Source of the DNA: Candidatus Bathyarchaeota archaeon
Lineage (GTDB): Archaea; Thermoproteota; Bathyarchaeia; Bathyarchaeales; Bathycorpusculaceae
Direction: 5' to 3'
Length of the DNA: 64,000 nt
Assembly (NCBI GenBank): GCA_963768425.1
Contig: CAVYHV010000015.1
Location: forward strand, 24,427 to 88,426
Positions 41,584 through 49,781 of the stretch are shown in pieces. Positions within the stretch are counted from its first letter, which is position 1; each line of letters starts with the position of its first letter. The notes below the pieces were generated by a model. It had not been told where the DNA came from. It did no database searches and saw only the letters and a list, made by a program, of their open reading frames with translations. The position numbers were made by a program, and so were the translations under genes.

Positions 41584-41973
41584 TCAAAGCGTTTTCAACC
41601 AATCATCAAGTTGCTTCTCTTTTAAGCCCACGCCGAATCTTCCGTCAAGACGTTTGGAGACTTTGCCTTTTTCAAAGAATATAATGGTTGGAACAGCCTC
41701 AACGTCGTATATATCCCACAACTCATTGTCGTAGTCATCAAGCATGACGTGAATGATTTCTCCGTCGTTGAATATGCCTGTTTTCTTTTGGAAAACCGGA
41801 ACAAAACTCCTGCAGTAAGGACACCATGAAGCATGAAAAAGTGCAAGAACTTTCTCGTTCTTCTTCAATTCCTGATTTAGGCCTTGTTCACTATCAACTT
41901 TGATCATAAGTATCATTCTAAATCGTTTTGCGTTGTTCATAAACGTGCCGTTCCTGCTCCAACAAACGCACAT
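41584..41973 (-). CDS. thioredoxin family protein (true start probably about 20 codons downstream)
   Basis: WCPYC active site, VPT cis-Pro motif. Confidence 0.9.
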   Translation of the reverse strand: MCVCWSRNGTFMNNAKRFRMILMIKVDSEQGLNQELKKNEKVLALFHASWCPYCRSFVPVFQKKTGIFNDGEIIHVMLDDYDNELWDIYDVEAVPTIIFFEKGKVSKRLDGRFGVGLKEKQLDDWLKTL

Positions 41974-42167: not shown

Positions 42168-42890
42168 ATGTCACGTAAAGCTTATCGAAGAGGATATCCA
42201 GTTGCAGTTTTAATCGGAATAGAGAGTGACCATGCTGCCTTATGGCAAATTTTCAGCCAAGTAGCCAAGCAACAACAAACTTTATCCCTAGCTGGGAACC
42301 GAAGCGACACAAAAAACCTGTACTGCTTTCACGAAGCAGTCATAAACGCAATTCGGCCGACTTTGAAGGAAGGAGTCAGAAGCATCGTAATAGCAGCGCC
42401 TCCGCGGACCAATTATGCACAGGAATTCCAAAATCACATTAAGGCACATCACAGCTGGCTTCTTTCAGGAACCAACAAAGCCACATTCTCCACCATCACA
42501 GGTTCAGCAAGCACACCCACCCAAGTTGCCGCCATTACAAAAACAGCAGCCTTCAAACAATCAATCAGCGAAACAACAACGGAAGAAGCAGAAAACCTTC
42601 TTGAAATCCTCGAAAAAAAGCTAAGCTCCCCTGAAAACTCGGTGCTTTTTTCTCTGCAAGACGCGGAACATTTTATTCTCGGAACGCAAACAGAGGGGAA
42701 GCCTAAGCCTGAATACCTCATGCTTACAGATGAGTTCCTTTCGAAGAGTCGGCAAAAATACCGAATTCAAAAGCTCATGCAGATTGCGGCAAACAAAGGA
42801 GTAAAAACCCGAGTAATAAGTGCGGAGTCAACTGCTGGAAAACGGCTAACGCAGTTTGGCGGAATTGTTTGTTTGGCAAAACGTGATTAG
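42168..42890 (+). CDS. Pelota/eRF1-like protein (domains 2-3 only)
   Basis: IVIAAP...AQEF domain-2 pattern; C-terminal SAESTAGKRLTQFGGIVCL. Confidence 0.65.
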   Translation: MSRKAYRRGYPVAVLIGIESDHAALWQIFSQVAKQQQTLSLAGNRSDTKNLYCFHEAVINAIRPTLKEGVRSIVIAAPPRTNYAQEFQNHIKAHHSWLLSGTNKATFSTITGSASTPTQVAAITKTAAFKQSISETTTEEAENLLEILEKKLSSPENSVLFSLQDAEHFILGTQTEGKPKPEYLMLTDEFLSKSRQKYRIQKLMQIAANKGVKTRVISAESTAGKRLTQFGGIVCLAKRD

Positions 42891-42895
42891 CCAAC

Positions 42896-43627
42896 CTAAA
42901 GAAATCCATTATCCTTAAGTTGCCCAATTGATATTTTGCCAGAATGCAAAGAAGTAGCCACCAACGCCCCTGAAATACCAGTATCCCGCAGCTCAAGCAA
43001 ATCACTGATGTCTCTGACGCCGCCTCCAACGTACAGATTCAACGGCACTTCTGCAAGCACTTTTTTCATAAAATCCATGTTCACTCCTTCGCCGCTGCCT
43101 ACCCGCGCCAAATCCAAAACAATGACTTGTGAAACGCCCATGACCTTGAACTCGTTTAGAAGGCAAATTGGATTCGTGCATCCATTGAATCCCAACTTGA
43201 CAAGGACCTTGTCGCCTCTCAAATCCAAGCTTACAATGACGCGGTCGCTTCCAAACGCTTTTACCGCTTCGCCGACGAAGCTTTTGTTTTGGAGTGTTTC
43301 GGTTCCGATGACAAGTTTTGAAACCCCGTTCTCAAGCAATTTCTCGGCTCGTTCCATTGAGGTCACGCCTGCATCGATCATCAGGTTAAGACCCGTTGCG
43401 TCAGAGATACGTTGGAAAACTTGAAAGTTGGCGGAGCAATCGATTATGGCATCTAAATCAGCAATATACAACTCGCTAAAACCGAGCTTTTTGAAGTCCT
43501 TTGCAACTTCAACTGGGTCGACTGAATTGGACAAGCTGCTTTGAAGGGGTTTATACTCGCTTCTCTTGCCCCTGATAGCATGGACCACGACGCCGTTTAA
43601 AATGTCGATCACTGGTATTGCTTTCAA
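42896..43627 (-). CDS. HisA/HisF-related TIM-barrel protein of C1/methanofuran gene clusters
   Basis: IPVIDILNGVVVHA, LYIADLDAI, LDLARVGSGEG, GGGVR. Confidence 0.8.
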   Translation of the reverse strand: MKAIPVIDILNGVVVHAIRGKRSEYKPLQSSLSNSVDPVEVAKDFKKLGFSELYIADLDAIIDCSANFQVFQRISDATGLNLMIDAGVTSMERAEKLLENGVSKLVIGTETLQNKSFVGEAVKAFGSDRVIVSLDLRGDKVLVKLGFNGCTNPICLLNEFKVMGVSQVIVLDLARVGSGEGVNMDFMKKVLAEVPLNLYVGGGVRDISDLLELRDTGISGALVATSLHSGKISIGQLKDNGFL

Positions 43628-43730
43628 TCTTGCTCGCTAACTGGAATTATTCGTTGCAAATAGAAAAACCTAGCCTTCGTTGAGCAAAACTTTTAAAGCC
43701 TTCATTAATGCGCTTGATTACTGACAACGA

Positions 43731-44471
43731 TTGAAGCTACTAATTAGCCCCGTAAACGCACAAGAAGCCGCCGAAGCTATTGCTGGAGGCGCCACCATAA
43801 TTGACGTCAAAAACCCTCAAGAAGGCGCCTTAGGAGCCAATTTTCCATGGGTCATCAAGCAGATAAAGGAGCTTGCACCGAAAAACGTTCAAGTTAGTTG
43901 CGCTTTAGGCGACATCCCGAATCTTCCTGGTTCTGTGTCGCTTGCAGCCTTGGGTGCAGCTTCGTTGGGGGTTGATTACGTCAAGGTAAGTCTTTATGGG
44001 TGCAAAACAGTTGAGGAAGCACTGTATCTCCTTCAAAACGTTAACAGAGCTGCTAAGGAATGCAACCCCAAAATCAAGGTGGCTGCCGTTGGTTACGCTG
44101 ACGCAAAAAAAACTAATTTGCTAGATCCAAGGCAGGTTCCCGAAGTAGCAGCCAAAGCGCACGTTGAGGTAGCCATGCTTGACACGCAGTTTAAAGACGG
44201 AAAGACCCTCTTCTTCCACCTCTCGGCGGAGCAACTTAAGAAATTCGTTGATCGTAGCCATCAACTGGGTCTTGAAGTGGCGTTGGCTGGGTCACTGCGG
44301 AAGGAAGATTTGCCTGTAGTTTACCGTTTGGGCGCCGATATAGTAGGTTTGCGTGGAGCAGCCTGCACAAACAGAGACCGAGTCAAGGGAGAAATGAAGA
44401 GAGCTCTCGTGGGCGAACTTGTGGAAGTTATCAGTCAAACTGAATTGCAAGCTAACAAGCCGAGGGTTTAA
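43731..44471 (+). CDS. mfnB: (5-formylfuran-3-yl)methyl phosphate synthase
   Basis: MKLLISP..EA..A..GGA.IIDVKNP.EGALGA, MLDT..KDG, LAGSL, GLRGAAC. Confidence 0.9.
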   Translation: MKLLISPVNAQEAAEAIAGGATIIDVKNPQEGALGANFPWVIKQIKELAPKNVQVSCALGDIPNLPGSVSLAALGAASLGVDYVKVSLYGCKTVEEALYLLQNVNRAAKECNPKIKVAAVGYADAKKTNLLDPRQVPEVAAKAHVEVAMLDTQFKDGKTLFFHLSAEQLKKFVDRSHQLGLEVALAGSLRKEDLPVVYRLGADIVGLRGAACTNRDRVKGEMKRALVGELVEVISQTELQANKPRV

Positions 44472-44473
44472 CC

Positions 44474-45613
44474 TTGCATGCAGGCGGCTTAAGCAGGAAA
44501 CTGGTGCTGGCTGAAATTAAAAAAGTCCGGCACTTAGACCAGCGCTACGATGACGGTAAGGTTTTGTGTTCCATGTGTACAAAGCCGCATCCGACGGCGG
44601 AGAAAGCTTACAAGCTCTTTTTGAATTCTAACTTAGGCGACCCTGGACTATTTCCAGGGAGCGTACAGCTTGAACAAGAAGTTGTACATGAATTAGCGAC
44701 CCTCCTTCATGGCGAAAACGGCATTGGACACGTAGTTTCAGGGGGAACCGAAGCTAATTTGATGGCACTTTTAGCCGCAAGAAACACGGCAAATGTCAGC
44801 GCTCCCGAAATCGTTTTGCCTGAATCGGCTCATTTCTCATTCACCAAAGTCTGCAATGTCCTAAAAATAAAGTCAGTGTACGTCAAATTAGACAGCTCTT
44901 TCAGAGTTGACCCAGTTCAGGTTGTGAAATCTATCAGCGAAAACACTATCGCAATCGTCGGGACTGCTGGAACTTCGGAACTGGGTGTGGTCGATCCAAT
45001 CGAGGAACTTTCACGAATTGCGCTAGAGCGCAAGGTTTGGTTACATGTTGATGCAGCCTTCGGAGGCTTAGTTATTCCGTTCTTAGATGGCGACAAACCT
45101 AAGTTTGATTTCTCATTGGAGGCAGTGAAATCTATGACAGTTGACCCTCACAAGATGGGAATGGCTGCCATTCCAGCAGGCGGAATCCTCTTCAGACACC
45201 AAGAAGCCTTGGATTGTCTCAAAACTGAAACGCCTTACTTAACCGATCGATACCAGTACACGTTTGTCGGAACACGAACAGGTGCTGCAGCTGCTTCAGC
45301 ATGGGCAGCTTTTAAGTCGCTAGGCATTGAAGGGTACAGGAAAATCGTCGGCAAATGCATGAAGAATACCCAGCTAATCGCTGACGGACTGGTAGATGAG
45401 GGTTGCAGCCTTGTCGTGCAGCCATCCCTGAACATCGTGGCGTTCCGCAGCAACGGTGGCACTAAACGCATGTCAGAGAGACTTCGACAGAAAGGCTGGC
45501 TTATCTCTTACGTGCCACGGTACGATTGCATAAGAATCGTTGTCATGCCGCACGTTAAGAAGAAGCATGCCGAAGTTTTTTTGAAGGACGTCGCCGGAAT
45601 CGAAAAGCTTTAA
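44474..45613 (+). CDS. mfnA: PLP-dependent tyrosine/aspartate decarboxylase
   Basis: SMCT.PHP, NLGDPGLFPG, SGGTEAN, HVDAAFGG, DPHKMG. Confidence 0.9.
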   Translation: MHAGGLSRKLVLAEIKKVRHLDQRYDDGKVLCSMCTKPHPTAEKAYKLFLNSNLGDPGLFPGSVQLEQEVVHELATLLHGENGIGHVVSGGTEANLMALLAARNTANVSAPEIVLPESAHFSFTKVCNVLKIKSVYVKLDSSFRVDPVQVVKSISENTIAIVGTAGTSELGVVDPIEELSRIALERKVWLHVDAAFGGLVIPFLDGDKPKFDFSLEAVKSMTVDPHKMGMAAIPAGGILFRHQEALDCLKTETPYLTDRYQYTFVGTRTGAAAASAWAAFKSLGIEGYRKIVGKCMKNTQLIADGLVDEGCSLVVQPSLNIVAFRSNGGTKRMSERLRQKGWLISYVPRYDCIRIVVMPHVKKKHAEVFLKDVAGIEKL

Positions 45614-45654
45614 GGTTACGCAGGGTTTCCATCGAATCTTAAAGGGACAATGCT

Positions 45655-46887
45655 TTGAAGATTTTGCTTTACGAGCATGTTTCAGGCGGCGGATACGCAG
45701 GAAAACCACTGGACCAAAGCGTTTTATCAGAAGGGTTCGGTATGCTACGCTGCCTCGCCCAAGATTTCAAAGCTGCAGGAAACGAAGTAACAGTTTTACT
45801 TGATGAACGCATCGCAAAAATGAAGCCGCCTCTCTCAGCTAAAAGCACAGTTCCAGTTTTTCAAGCCCAAGAAGTCGAAAAATCTCTGGTTAACGCTGCT
45901 AAAACTAACGATGCTGTCTACGTTATTGCGCCTGAAACAGGACAGATCCTGCAGTCACTGGTCACTCTCGTTGGGAAAACATCGAAAGTGGCTCTTAATT
46001 GCGAAGCCAGCGCTATTGGCAACGTTGCGGATAAGGCGGTTCTCTACGAGACCCTCAGGAACAACGATTTATACACTCCTGAAACGGTCATCTTTGACGT
46101 TGAGAATGACTTAGCCCAAGTTGAGCGAGAAATCAGAAGTCGACTGAGTTACCCTGTCGTCGTTAAGCCTGTGGATGGTGTTAGCTGCGGAGGATTAAGC
46201 ATCATCCACGAAGACCGTCTATTAGAAACTGCAATCGAGAAAATAAAGTCGACATCATCCGCAAAAAGTTTCATTGCACAAGAGTTCATTTGCGGCGAAA
46301 ACGCGAGCGTAAGCCTGATTTGCAAGGAAGATAAAGCGTTATCAGCTAGCCTGAATAAACAGATCGTTAATCTTTCCGAACCAGAAGGAGCTTCAAGCTA
46401 TGAAGGCGGCGCGGTTCCTTTTGATCATGCGCTAAAGACTGAAGCGTTCAAAGCGGCGGAAAAGGTTGCATCGTGTTTTGTTGGATTGCGAGGCTACGTC
46501 GGGGTTGACTTCGTTTTGGCGCAAGGCAGGGCATTTGTTGTGGATATTAATCCTAGATTAACGACGTCTTATGTTGGTTTGAGCAAAGTTGCTGGTTTTA
46601 ACGTGGCAGAGGCAATGGTTCATGCCGTACTTGATAACAAGTTTCTAGTACAGCAGGAAAACAAGGGGTTCGTTTATTTTTCTAAAGTTCGATTGCCCAA
46701 GCCTTCAATTGATGTCTTCTCTAAGGTCGCTCAAATAGACGGGGTTATTTCACCGCCTTTCCCCGTTGACGGCGAGTCAGAAGCGATTTCGCTGGTGGCT
46801 GCTAATGGCGAATCCATGTCTGACGCGGAGCTGCGGTTCGAAGAAGCTAAAAAGCGGCTGCTCAAGTTATCAGTGGGAGAAAGATAG
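45655..46887 (+). CDS. mfnD: tyramine--L-glutamate ligase (ATP-grasp)
   Basis: YEHVSGGG, EGFGML, IAPE, VKPVDG, GYVGVD, DINPRLTTSY; operon context. Confidence 0.8.
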   Translation: MKILLYEHVSGGGYAGKPLDQSVLSEGFGMLRCLAQDFKAAGNEVTVLLDERIAKMKPPLSAKSTVPVFQAQEVEKSLVNAAKTNDAVYVIAPETGQILQSLVTLVGKTSKVALNCEASAIGNVADKAVLYETLRNNDLYTPETVIFDVENDLAQVEREIRSRLSYPVVVKPVDGVSCGGLSIIHEDRLLETAIEKIKSTSSAKSFIAQEFICGENASVSLICKEDKALSASLNKQIVNLSEPEGASSYEGGAVPFDHALKTEAFKAAEKVASCFVGLRGYVGVDFVLAQGRAFVVDINPRLTTSYVGLSKVAGFNVAEAMVHAVLDNKFLVQQENKGFVYFSKVRLPKPSIDVFSKVAQIDGVISPPFPVDGESEAISLVAANGESMSDAELRFEEAKKRLLKLSVGER

Positions 46888-46888
46888 C

Positions 46889-47959
46889 GTGGTAGACGTG
46901 TTAGGATTTGACATCGGGGGCGCGAACACCAAAGCTGTACTAGTTCGTACGCAAAACGGTAGACTAAAAGACATAAAGCTTGACATCGAGTATTTCCCGA
47001 TTTGGAAAGAACCACAAAAACTCTCAAAAGTCCTCTTGAAGTTGAAGCAACGACTGGGTGCCGAAAGACTCGATGGATTAGGGGTTACAATGACCGCTGA
47101 ATTATCGGATGCTTACCAAACCAAACGTGAAGGAGTTCACAGCGTTATAGCCGGAGTTAAAGAATCGTTTCCTGACACGCCTATCCACGTGCTAAATACA
47201 GATTGCGAGTTGGAGTCGACAGCCAAGGCAGAATTGGCGCCACTTGGGGTAGCGGCTGCAAATTGGGTTGCTACAGGATGGTTGGTTGCCCAGCGAATAG
47301 CCAACTGCGTGATAGCTGACGTCGGAAGCACAAGCACCAGTATAATTCCAGTCGCTTCAGGGAAAGTGGCTGCACTGGGCAAAACGGATTTGGACAAACT
47401 AATTTGTGGAGAGCTTGTTTACACGGGAGGTTTAAGGACAAATGTCGCGGCAATTGTCCAATCCATTCCTGTCAGAGGCGGAGTAGCCAGCGTGGCATCT
47501 GAAATGTTTGCGCTATCCGCAGATGTCCACATAATCTTAGGCCACATCACAGAAGCGCAGTACACTAGTGAGACTGCGGACGGACGCGGCAAGACGTTAC
47601 GTGAAGCCTATGCAAGGTTAGCTAGGGTAGTTTGCGCTGATACAGACATGTTGACGAATCAGGAAATATTTGAGATGGCAAAATACATCTACCTCAGCCA
47701 ACTTTTGCAAGTTACCCAAGGCTTAACCAAAGTCTACTCACACGTTAAAAAGCAAGCGAAAAACGAAGTTTCAATCGTGGTCACGGGTCTCGGTAAAGAT
47801 TTTATCGCAAGAAAAGCAGCTGAAAAAATCGGCGCTGACTCTATCTTCGATTTGGGAACCTTTCTGCCAAAAGAAATGTCGATGGCGACGCCTGCTTTCG
47901 CAGTTGCATTGATGACAGCGAACAAGATTGAGGGGGAGACAATCTGTTGGACGCAGTAA
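46889..47959 (+). CDS. mfnF: methanofuran ether-forming synthase (hydantoinase-A-like)
   Basis: GFDIGGANTK, TMTAELSDAY.TKREGV, DVGSTST, ELVYTG.LRT; GTG start after the mfnD stop. Confidence 0.85.
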   Translation: MVDVLGFDIGGANTKAVLVRTQNGRLKDIKLDIEYFPIWKEPQKLSKVLLKLKQRLGAERLDGLGVTMTAELSDAYQTKREGVHSVIAGVKESFPDTPIHVLNTDCELESTAKAELAPLGVAAANWVATGWLVAQRIANCVIADVGSTSTSIIPVASGKVAALGKTDLDKLICGELVYTGGLRTNVAAIVQSIPVRGGVASVASEMFALSADVHIILGHITEAQYTSETADGRGKTLREAYARLARVVCADTDMLTNQEIFEMAKYIYLSQLLQVTQGLTKVYSHVKKQAKNEVSIVVTGLGKDFIARKAAEKIGADSIFDLGTFLPKEMSMATPAFAVALMTANKIEGETICWTQ

Positions 47960-48624
47960 TGGTCAAAGTCGGCGGAAGCCTTGCATTGCAACCGGATAAA
48001 CTGAGAAGCTTATGCGGAAAATTGACCGAGTTTTCTTATGCACACAAATTAGTTATATTGCCGGGAGGCGGCGAATTTGCCGACGCGGTCAGAAACTTAG
48101 ATGAGCGATTCCATTTGTCGCCTAAGATTTCTCATCGCATGGCGATTTTAGGGATGGATCAATATGGGTTGCTGCTGTCTAACCTGCTGGCGGGTTCAAA
48201 GCTTGTTTATGAGCTTGATGATCTGCAAGAAATCCTCAATTCAGGTGAGTTGCCAGTTTTTTTGCCGTCGGCTTTCTTGTTTTCTAAAGATGCACTTGAG
48301 AACTCGTGGGATGTTACTTCTGACACTATCGCCGTCTATATTGCAAGCCAACTGGGCTTATCCAAAGTTGTCTTAGTGACTGATGTTGATGGAGTCTACT
48401 CCAGTGACCCTAAGAAGTTTTTAAATGCAAAATTGATCAGGAAGTTGTCCGCTTCCAAGCTCCTAAAAATGAGCGAGAGAACGAGCGTTGATAAGTTCTT
48501 GCCAAAACTAATCTTGCAGTCCCAGCTTGAATGTTTCGTCGTAAATGGGCTACATTCCCAGCGCATCAAGGCAATCTTAACTGGAAAAGAAACAGTTTGC
48601 ACCAAAATAACCCGAAATCCATAG
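47947..48624 (+). CDS. mfnE: [5-(aminomethyl)furan-3-yl]methyl phosphate kinase (amino-acid kinase fold)
   Basis: VKVGGSL, PGGGEFAD, HRMAILGMDQYG, SWDVTSD, TDVDG. Confidence 0.85.
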   Translation: MDAVMVKVGGSLALQPDKLRSLCGKLTEFSYAHKLVILPGGGEFADAVRNLDERFHLSPKISHRMAILGMDQYGLLLSNLLAGSKLVYELDDLQEILNSGELPVFLPSAFLFSKDALENSWDVTSDTIAVYIASQLGLSKVVLVTDVDGVYSSDPKKFLNAKLIRKLSASKLLKMSERTSVDKFLPKLILQSQLECFVVNGLHSQRIKAILTGKETVCTKITRNP

Positions 48625-49172: not shown

Positions 49173-49781
49173 GTGATGAAGCTAAGTCTGGAGAACCAGA
49201 TGATTGTCGGTTTAGATTTGGCAGGCGTCGAAACACGACCAACCGGCGTCTGCATCCTTACAGGAATGAACGCTCAAACTTGCCTGATGTATACGGACAC
49301 GGAAATCCTCGCAAAAATCAAGGCAATTAATCCTGCCGTTGTAGCCATCGACGCGCCTTTAAGCCTGCCTCCTGGACGGAAATCCCTTGAAGATAGAACT
49401 GGTGTTCACCTTAGAGAATGCGACAGGGAACTCTTGAAAAGGCACATAAAGTTTTTTCCAATTACGCTGGGTCCTATGCGAAAACTGACCATACGCGGAA
49501 TAAACCTGAGACATGCTTTAGAGGCGGAACGATTGGTTGTGATTGAGGCGTATCCAGGCGGTGCACAAGACGTTCGTGGAATCCTCCGAAAGCAGAAAGG
49601 GCTCGAAAAACTAAAGTCTGGTCTTGAGAGCTTAGGCATAAAAGGGCTGAAGAACGAATTAAGCGACCATGAACTTGATGCAGTAACTTGTGCATATGTG
49701 GGCAAACTCTTTCTAGAGGGCAAATCTGTAACTTATGGAGCCCCAGAAGGAATAGTTATGCCGAAAGGTACAAAACCCTGA
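49173..49781 (+). CDS. DUF429-family predicted RNase H-like nuclease
   Basis: VGLDLAG, AIDAPLS, IEAYP, HELDAVTCA. Confidence 0.8.
   Translation: MMKLSLENQMIVGLDLAGVETRPTGVCILTGMNAQTCLMYTDTEILAKIKAINPAVVAIDAPLSLPPGRKSLEDRTGVHLRECDRELLKRHIKFFPITLGPMRKLTIRGINLRHALEAERLVVIEAYPGGAQDVRGILRKQKGLEKLKSGLESLGIKGLKNELSDHELDAVTCAYVGKLFLEGKSVTYGAPEGIVMPKGTKP

Follow-up and report, generated by a model that had tools for sequence, protein, structure and literature searches.

Methanofuran is the first one-carbon (C1) carrier of methanogenesis and of the archaeal Wood-Ljungdahl pathway and, in the form of methylofuran, of bacterial methylotrophy. The archaeal-like C1 gene cluster of Methylorubrum extorquens PA1 contains Orf17 (Mext_1835), which belongs to PF00977 and shares 26% identity with MJ0703 (Hemmann et al. 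2021, J Biol Chem 296:100682, PMC8141765). Deletion of orf17 abolished methylofuran and complementation restored it; no glutamylated core intermediate accumulated in the mutant, methenyl-dephosphotetrahydromethanopterin (methenyl-dH4MPT) was still produced, and the role of Orf17 was called "still unclear" (PMC8141765). M. extorquens is without MfnA and MfnD, and its MfnC was not pinned down among five homologues (PMC8141765). Because MfnA and MfnD are missing there, Orf17 is not tied to the tyramine side of the pathway and, therefore, the furan arm or the coupling step remains. Literature searches for MJ0703, and for orf17 together with methylofuran, found no paper later than 2021 that assigns a function. 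Here, we describe a HisA-like TIM-barrel gene that stands divergent from five methanofuran biosynthesis (mfn) genes at positions 42896-48624 of a 64,000-nucleotide stretch of archaeal DNA, the window (G000:C15:24427-88426). The assembly is 2.96 Mb long and 91% complete, and the nearest homologues of the window proteins carry the public names Candidatus Bathyarchaeia or Bathyarchaeota. The best overall explanation, which is probably correct, is that the locus is the methanofuran biosynthesis unit of a non-methanogenic Bathyarchaeia archaeon, with the barrel as an enzyme of the furan arm. That the barrel is an enzyme dedicated to methanofuran biosynthesis is very likely. The need for Orf17 in methylofuran synthesis was published in 2021, so the idea itself is not new, and the locus is nothing new in kind, being an archaeal member of a known and genetically implicated family. 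What is added here is the clade assignment, the linkage across phyla, the fusions with MfnA and with MfnF-MfnE, the evidence against a methanopterin role, and a residue signature. Members of this one gene family accompany the genes for methanofuran and methylofuran biosynthesis in both archaea and bacteria, and deletion in a bacterium has shown the family member there to be essential.

The window locus can be compared with several described systems. Like Orf17, the window barrel is a PF00977 protein that exists beside a separate hisA and hisF and lies next to methanofuran or methylofuran genes. The hosts differ, since Orf17 belongs to a methylotroph with polyglutamylated methylofuran, whereas the window comes from an anaerobic archaeon that would use methanofuran for CO2 fixation. 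The Orf17-type protein of Azospirillum is in the same clade and its gene is part of the same triad, with the HisA-like gene opposite ATP-grasp-MfnF, but the window barrel is only about 36% identical to it and has mfnB and mfnA as neighbors. The MJ0703/TIGR00734 proteins of methanogens and Archaeoglobus have the clade and the signature residues in common with the window barrel. In contrast to these proteins, the window barrel falls under the model's cut-off and has a more HisA-like sequence, and the Methanobacteriota gene is mostly unlinked to mfn. HisA and PriA share with the window barrel the (beta-alpha)8 fold, the residues D8, D57 and D135, and the GGG phosphate loop on the C-terminal side. 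Unlike them, the window barrel has Val in place of the "DG" Asp and a longer loop 1 (R22, Y25), and it lies outside the his operon. As in the MfnA-F pathway of M. jannaschii, the window genome has mfnA, mfnB, mfnF, mfnD-like and mfnE-like genes together with cofactor-using enzymes. However, its genes form a five-gene operon (they are scattered in Methanobacteriota), mfnC is unlinked, and the mfnD, mfnE and mfnB matches are under the narrow NCBIfam cut-offs.

The barrel gene (42896-43627, minus strand) encodes 243 aa from a TTG start and matched PF00977 with 173 bits; the NCBI name of its family is "HisA/HisF-related TIM barrel protein". A full hisG-D-C-B-H-A-F-I row was found on another contig, C30, and the hisA in this row (C30:138593-139291) scored 245 bits against a cut-off of 229. 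With TIGR00007, the HisA model, the window barrel reached 141 bits, under the same cut-off of 229, and with TIGR00734 it reached 147.1 bits, under the cut-off of 179.85. A search for representatives with the window barrel gave 471 clusters (50% identity) at E <= 1e-30, and trees were calculated with IQ-TREE (LG+G4, 78 rows) and FastTree (171 sequences). In the IQ-TREE tree, 61 rows of the HisA-like clade were split from HisA and HisF with support of 100/100, and the same split received a support of 0.90 in the FastTree tree. The clade contained the window protein and those of other Bathyarchaeia, Asgard proteins, methanogen members of TIGR00734 over the cut-off, the mfnB neighbors of Halobacteriota, the barrel domains of fusion proteins, and the Azospirillum protein, which was the bacterial Orf17-type row because M. 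extorquens Orf17 itself was not among the rows. Also, TIGR00734 members over the cut-off were the best matches of the window barrel in methanogen genomes, above true HisA. Asgard and Methanocellales members of the clade likewise scored under the TIGR00734 cut-off. This model was presumably seeded from few methanogen and Archaeoglobus sequences, and the shortfall was treated as a limit of the model and not of the family. The window barrel is a paralogue in the Orf17/MJ0703 clade (TIGR00734, COG1411) and not hisA; the true-hisA reading was rejected on the basis of the full his operon on C30 and the 100/100 split. The initial annotation would have been refuted if the gene were the genome's true hisA in a complete His pathway and unlinked to mfn in relatives. 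Neither is the case, with hisA on C30 and the barrel linked to mfn across three archaeal phyla and bacteria.

The distribution of the barrel was surveyed in 151 Bathyarchaeia genomes, where barrel matches scored at least 165 bits and everything else (true HisA) at most 110 bits. The barrel was found in 33 genomes, mfnB in 34, and both in 32. Put differently, 32 of the 34 genomes with mfnB had the barrel compared to one of the 117 without mfnB, and the exceptions to the pairing were G079 (62% complete), G001 and G011. The two genes were no more than 5 kb apart in 25 of the 32 genomes that hold both. The methanopterin marker mptG was present in 71 of the 151 genomes, 43 of which were without the barrel. 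The barrel follows mfnB, not mptG. Among 80 mfnB loci from public genomes, the barrel was within the flank in 58 and, therefore, the arrangement of the cluster is far from chance. The commonest order in these loci was thioredoxin, pelota-like gene and barrel on one side of the divergent gap and mfnB-A-D-F-E and DUF429 on the other. Other Bathyarchaeia families had the order barrel, mfnD-mfnF-mfnE, mfnB, in separate blocks and without mfnA.

Outside Bathyarchaeia, all 101 Methanobacteriota genomes had mfnB and 98 had the barrel; the two were mainly unlinked and were 4-6 kb apart in about 18 genomes. In Halobacteriota, 96 of the 121 genomes had mfnB. The pair counts for this phylum were read from two coordinate tables and are lower bounds: at least 31 directly adjacent divergent barrel-mfnB pairs and at least 15 further pairs within 5.2 kb were found (at least 46 of 96). 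A barrel-level match was seen in one of the 25 Halobacteriota genomes without mfnB, a small genome with the match at a contig start. No consistent third partner was found among the Halobacteriota neighbors, which included TrkA-C/PhoU, phosphoribosyl pyrophosphate (PRPP) synthase, phosphoglycerate mutase, RpiA, IMPDH and DsbD-like genes. The co-occurrence of the HisA-like family with mfn genes, which the initial annotation had proposed as a check, was therefore borne out by these counts. Its statement that the mfn genes are usually dispersed in methanogens was right for most Methanobacteriota but did not stand for Halobacteriota, where the divergent HisA-like and mfnB pair is very common. In Asgard archaea, two genomes (G155 and G156, behind L101 and L102) had the barrel (194-203 bits) as the sole HisA-family match at E <= 1e-8, and in G156 it was 230 kb from mfnB. 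These two genomes may be without histidine synthesis.

The link to the pathway was also seen in bacteria and in natural fusions. On a plasmid of Azospirillum, one of the Alphaproteobacteria, the barrel gene is divergent from genes for an ATP-grasp and a hydantoinase-fold protein inside a fae-mch-mtdB-fhc island. The window barrel, ATP-grasp protein and MfnF match exactly these three genes of the island, and the window's mfnD-like protein has no other match there than this ATP-grasp gene, which neighbors the Orf17-type gene. The evidence for fusions came from domain scans and from the cluster membership of longer proteins. Three proteins (P0394, P0398 and P0403; 618-692 aa) join a barrel at approximately residues 1-232 to an MfnA domain that scored 394 bits, over the cut-off. 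They occur on several contigs from Undinarchaeales and other metagenome-assembled genomes, and one example is NCBI MDP7078516.1. Undinarchaeales belong to DPANN and are not known to carry out C1 metabolism. A fourth fusion, P0397 (777 aa), consists of the barrel, MfnF and MfnE, and its barrel domain groups with Azospirillum-type representatives in the tree. The other fused forms among the top representatives were set aside; they were HisA-HisF or HisH-HisA-HisF histidine enzymes, or had N-terminal extensions without a Pfam match, and were uninformative on function. The suggestion of the initial annotation that the HisA-like barrel is a candidate for an unassigned methanofuran step thus found support, as the paralogue is linked to mfn genes; the same idea had already been published for bacterial Orf17 (PMC8141765).

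The AlphaFold model of the window barrel had a mean confidence (pLDDT) of 96.4. Its nearest solved folds were PriA and HisA (TM 0.86, 21-24% identity), and no close relative was found among solved structures, the best sequence match being Campylobacter HisA with 81 bits. Signature residues were counted over 171 clade members. D8, G20, D57, G87, D135, G177, G181, G202 and G203 are common to the clade and HisA, and the first catalytic Asp of HisA, D8, is therefore kept in the window barrel. Specific to the clade are R22, Y25 and P27 in the longer first loop, Y54 (His in HisA), D85, E110, S133, Val176 and H228; R22, Y25 and Y54 are invariant and H228 is nearly so. The HisA "DG" motif has its Asp at the position of Val176, where Val was found in 163 of the 171 members, compared to Asp or Glu in all 14 true HisA rows and Asp in the HisF rows. 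We take the "DG" Asp to be D176 in the numbering of Salmonella enterica HisA; the titles of PDB entries 5a5w and 5abt name D7 and D176 mutants, these being the two residues exchanged in S. enterica HisA to trap substrate. At the N-terminal phosphate site, D85 replaces the first Gly of GGGIR in 170 of the 171 members and E110 is present in all 171. Compared to HisA, GGGIR has become D-A-G and G(T/S) has become G-T-E in the clade, while the GGG of the C-terminal phosphate site (201-203) is kept. Because Val176 replaces a catalytic Asp and the N-terminal phosphate site is acidic, the barrel is unlikely to follow the canonical Amadori mechanism or to bind a bisphosphate substrate. Judging by the alignment, the clade retains the C-terminal phosphate site and has a pair of carboxylates at the N-terminal one, from which we infer a substrate with one phosphate, together with either a cationic group or a metal. 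The signature of D8, R22, Y25, Y54, D85, E110, D135 and H228, with Val at the HisA acid position, could guide mutagenesis and the choice of substrates.

The initial annotation had also stated that the cluster is without mfnC and that the transaminase must be encoded elsewhere. When the genome's own aminotransferases were used as probes, none was found in the cluster or in about 100 related loci, and no MfnC model surfaced in NCBIfam scans of the genome. The genome has five full-length class I/II aminotransferases, namely hisC, one DapL-like, two CobD/HisC-like and a fifth at C17:127288-128415. Of the 151 Bathyarchaeia genomes, 17 had a close orthologue of the fifth (E <= 1e-90). In the order to which the window belongs, it was found in 15 of 16 mfnB-positive genomes (own genome counted) compared to one of 18 mfnB-negative genomes. 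Judging by which genomes carry it, this class-I aminotransferase (G000:C17:127288-128415) is the best candidate for MfnC and most likely the transaminase, which would then be encoded away from the cluster, as expected. In the sources, its homologues are named only "aspartate aminotransferase".

These data can be combined into a possible mechanism. Two back-to-back promoters in the 103-bp gap would drive mfnB-mfnA-mfnD-like-mfnF-mfnE in one direction and the barrel in the other. MfnB would make 4-(hydroxymethyl)-2-furancarboxaldehyde phosphate (4-HFC-P), and the barrel would act after that, before or at the MfnE and MfnF steps, where it would convert an intermediate carrying one phosphate by acid-base chemistry, possibly with the help of a metal. 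The placement of the barrel between 4-HFC-P and the coupling step, drawn from gene order, fusions and elimination, is tentative and may well be wrong. A natural control is seen in Streptomyces plasmids, where genes for an aldehyde and an alcohol dehydrogenase follow mfnB and no barrel was found within 9 kb on either side. One of them is plasmid NZ_CP108584.1 of Streptomyces sp. NBC_01187 (14788-18082; L167), whose mfnB homologue (47% identity) is the first gene of such an operon. Such a plasmid mfnB was found in 11 Streptomyces and 2 Streptantibioticus plasmid records. Because these clusters hold mfnB and no barrel, MfnB seems to deliver the furan aldehyde without it. The Streptomyces cluster looks like a different furan pathway from the same aldehyde. 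A bolder proposal, which we regard as doubtful, is that the six-enzyme MfnA-F route is incomplete in vivo and that the barrel performs a seventh, obligatory furan-arm reaction wherever methanofuran or methylofuran is made, perhaps a step from 4-HFC-P to 5-(aminomethyl)-3-furanmethanol phosphate (F1-P) that is metal-assisted or independent of pyridoxal phosphate (PLP). Should methanogens prove unable to do without the enzyme, it would add to the targets that are specific to methane producers.

Several points speak against a furan-arm role for the barrel or call for caution. The M. jannaschii enzymes MfnA-F reportedly rebuild the core in vitro without the barrel, and no chemical gap is evident from this. 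We know of no clade member with a known biochemical activity. Two mfnB genomes were without the barrel: G011, which is 98% complete, and G001, which is 87% complete and has only a piece of mfnB at a contig end. The curated cut-off of TIGR00734 was not reached by the window barrel (147 vs 180 bits). PRPP synthase and ribose-5-phosphate isomerase lie beside the barrel in a few Halobacteriota and would be consistent with a ribosyl substrate of the kind used to make methanopterin. Lastly, related genomes are not independent and, thus, the co-occurrence counts overstate significance and are to be read as a pattern and not as a test statistic.

Other roles for the barrel can be weighed against the same data. 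It could act as a helper of MfnB, either as a HisF-like cyclase or dehydratase or in the manner of triose-phosphate isomerase, that completes or speeds up formation of the furan ring. No arrangement is more conserved in Halobacteriota than the divergent barrel-mfnB pair, which also occurs in the window genome, and HisF chemistry is established to form a five-membered aromatic ring on a sugar phosphate. However, ring formation is credited to MfnB alone in work by Wang et al. as cited by Hemmann et al. 2021 (PMC8141765), the Streptomyces plasmids pair mfnB with dehydrogenases and not with a nearby barrel, and the barrel has mfnD-mfnF and not mfnB as its neighbor in Azospirillum and in further families of Bathyarchaeia. 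We consider a helper role unlikely. Also improbable, to a similar or slightly greater degree, is that the barrel performs, or is indispensable to, the amination of 4-HFC-P to F1-P in vivo, with MfnC dispensable or a helper. The two compounds are comparable to pyridoxal phosphate and pyridoxamine phosphate, and a barrel with acid-base chemistry, which might bind a metal at D85/E110, could shift an amino-acid imine without PLP. This would explain why every mfn cluster examined was without an aminotransferase while the barrel was nearly always there, and why the barrel and mfnB are the pair left where just two genes remain together. The fusion to MfnF and MfnE also fits, as MfnE is the F1-P kinase, and the acidic N-terminal phosphate site would suit an ammonium group or a metal. 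In M. extorquens, moreover, MfnC was not found among its homologues and the orf17 mutant was blocked before the core (PMC8141765). On the other hand, the existence of the C17 aminotransferase candidate, which tracks mfnB within the order (15/16 vs 1/18), weakens the idea that the barrel replaces MfnC. M. jannaschii holds both MJ0703 and an MfnC that is biochemically active according to work cited in PMC8141765. Furthermore, furan rings are poor electron sinks, which disfavors a proton shift of this kind, and the HisA/HisF superfamily offers no precedent for it.

A role in tetrahydromethanopterin biosynthesis, for example in opening the ribofuranosyl ring of an intermediate derived from beta-ribofuranosylaminobenzene 5'-phosphate (beta-RFA-P), goes back to an older suggestion for MJ0703 that is cited in Hemmann et al. 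2021 (PMC8141765). HisA-type chemistry does work on ribosylamines, and the Halobacteriota genes for PRPP synthase and ribose-5-phosphate isomerase point the same way. Yet 43 of the 71 mptG-positive Bathyarchaeia are without the barrel and its pairing with mfnB is almost one to one, its fusions are solely with Mfn enzymes, the "DG" Asp of HisA is lost, and methenyl-dH4MPT was still made by the orf17 mutant (PMC8141765). This role is very improbable, and the archaeal members are shifted here from a tentative methanopterin function to methanofuran. The chance that the barrel is a second or spare hisA for histidine synthesis is close to nil. Its score with the HisA model (141 bits) almost equals that with TIGR00734 (147 bits), but the genome has a full his operon elsewhere whose HisA passes the cut-off, the clade is split from HisA with full support, the second catalytic Asp and one phosphate site have been lost family-wide, and the two Asgard genomes hold the barrel and no other HisA-family match at E <= 1e-8.

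Turning from the barrel to the rest of the locus, the open reading frames (ORFs) and the family matches agreed with the arrangement first described, in which tightly packed or overlapping mfnB-A-D-F-E genes face the HisA-like gene across a 103-bp divergent gap (43628-43730). All five genes are on the plus strand. mfnB (43731-44471) encodes the 4-HFC-P synthase, also named (5-formylfuran-3-yl)methyl phosphate synthase, and matched PF04476 with 264 bits (cut-off 22.4) and NF002573 with 314 bits, slightly under the cut-off of 341. The tyrosine decarboxylase gene mfnA (44474-45613) matched TIGR03812 with 493 bits (cut-off 299). It is followed by an ATP-grasp ligase gene of the orf1/mfnD family (45655-46887) with the domains PF02655 (ATP-grasp_3) and PF18301 (preATP-grasp_3). 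The top NCBIfam model for this gene was NF040722 MfnD at 135 bits, under its cut-off of 400. In methanogen genomes, the best matches to the ATP-grasp protein were recognized by the MfnD model alone, with 127-180 bits, and the gene probably encodes the tyramine-glutamate ligase. mfnF (46889-47959), for the coupling enzyme with a hydantoinase fold, scored 327 bits with TIGR03123 (cut-off 244) and 268 bits with NF040623 MfnF (cut-off 520). MfnA, MfnB and MfnF were thus all recognized by curated models. Finally, mfnE (47947-48624), for the kinase acting on F1-P, matched PF00696 and had NF040622 MfnE as its top model, though under the cut-off (190 vs 300 bits); it stays directly behind mfnF in about 70 related loci, and the place of the mfnD-like gene within the cluster is conserved as well. 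The spacing is 2 bp between mfnB and mfnA, 41 bp between mfnA and the ATP-grasp gene and approximately 1 bp between the latter and mfnF, and mfnF and mfnE overlap by 13 bp.

The longest ORF for mfnF opens at 46766, within the ATP-grasp gene, whose stop codon is at 46885-46887. Because the profile matches the long ORF only from residue 45 onward and a GTG directly follows the ATP-grasp stop, the start was moved, and the true start is most likely the GTG at 46889 or 46898. Two motifs were found in the divergent gap. CAAAACTTTTAAAG (43685-43698) is approximately 35 bp upstream of the mfnB start, and ATAGAAAAAC (43660-43669) is on the other strand, approximately 35-40 bp upstream of the start of the HisA-like gene. 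When 12 related intergenic regions were aligned, AAAA..TTAAAG was invariant and the second motif was mostly kept. The two motifs would represent back-to-back archaeal promoters, each with a transcription factor B recognition element (BRE) and a TATA box.

The flanking genes were also inspected. On the barrel side lies a plus-strand gene (42168-42890), with 5 bp between its end and the stop of the HisA-like gene. Its 240-aa product resembles pelota/eRF1 only in the middle and toward the C-terminus (29 bits with eRF1_3; positions 137-348 of the pelota model). This gene and a thioredoxin gene (41584-41973, minus strand) hold the same place in about 45 related Bathyarchaeia loci. Behind mfnE, the window has a DUF429 gene (PF04250, 39 bits; 49173-49781, plus strand). 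Roughly 35 related loci within the same family also have it there, and it is not found behind mfnE in more distant Bathyarchaeia, Halobacteriota or Azospirillum.

The genome was searched for enzymes that use the cofactor, as the initial annotation had expected a methanofuran-dependent C1 pathway in this organism. FwdC (251 bits, over the cut-off), two Ftr and Mch (360 bits) were encoded, in agreement with that expectation, and no McrA was found in the 91% complete genome. The cofactor-using genes form the methanofuran-dependent branch of the archaeal Wood-Ljungdahl pathway, a branch known from Bathyarchaeota (Chistoserdova 2016, PMC5020050). For mptG, which encodes beta-RFA-P synthase, only two partial pieces were seen in this genome, at G000:C9:74837-75439 (plus strand) and C9:77800-78336 (minus strand). 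The pieces are on opposite strands, 2.4 kb apart and both under the cut-off, and one contains an in-frame TGA; relatives have one intact gene. The split may have arisen through disruption of the gene, through an inversion or from an error in the assembly. On the same contig, a 55-residue fragment of the end of Mch (G000:C9:122611-122775, minus strand) with two in-frame TAA codons was found 1.1 kb away from the intact mch, probably the remnant of a duplicate that has decayed.

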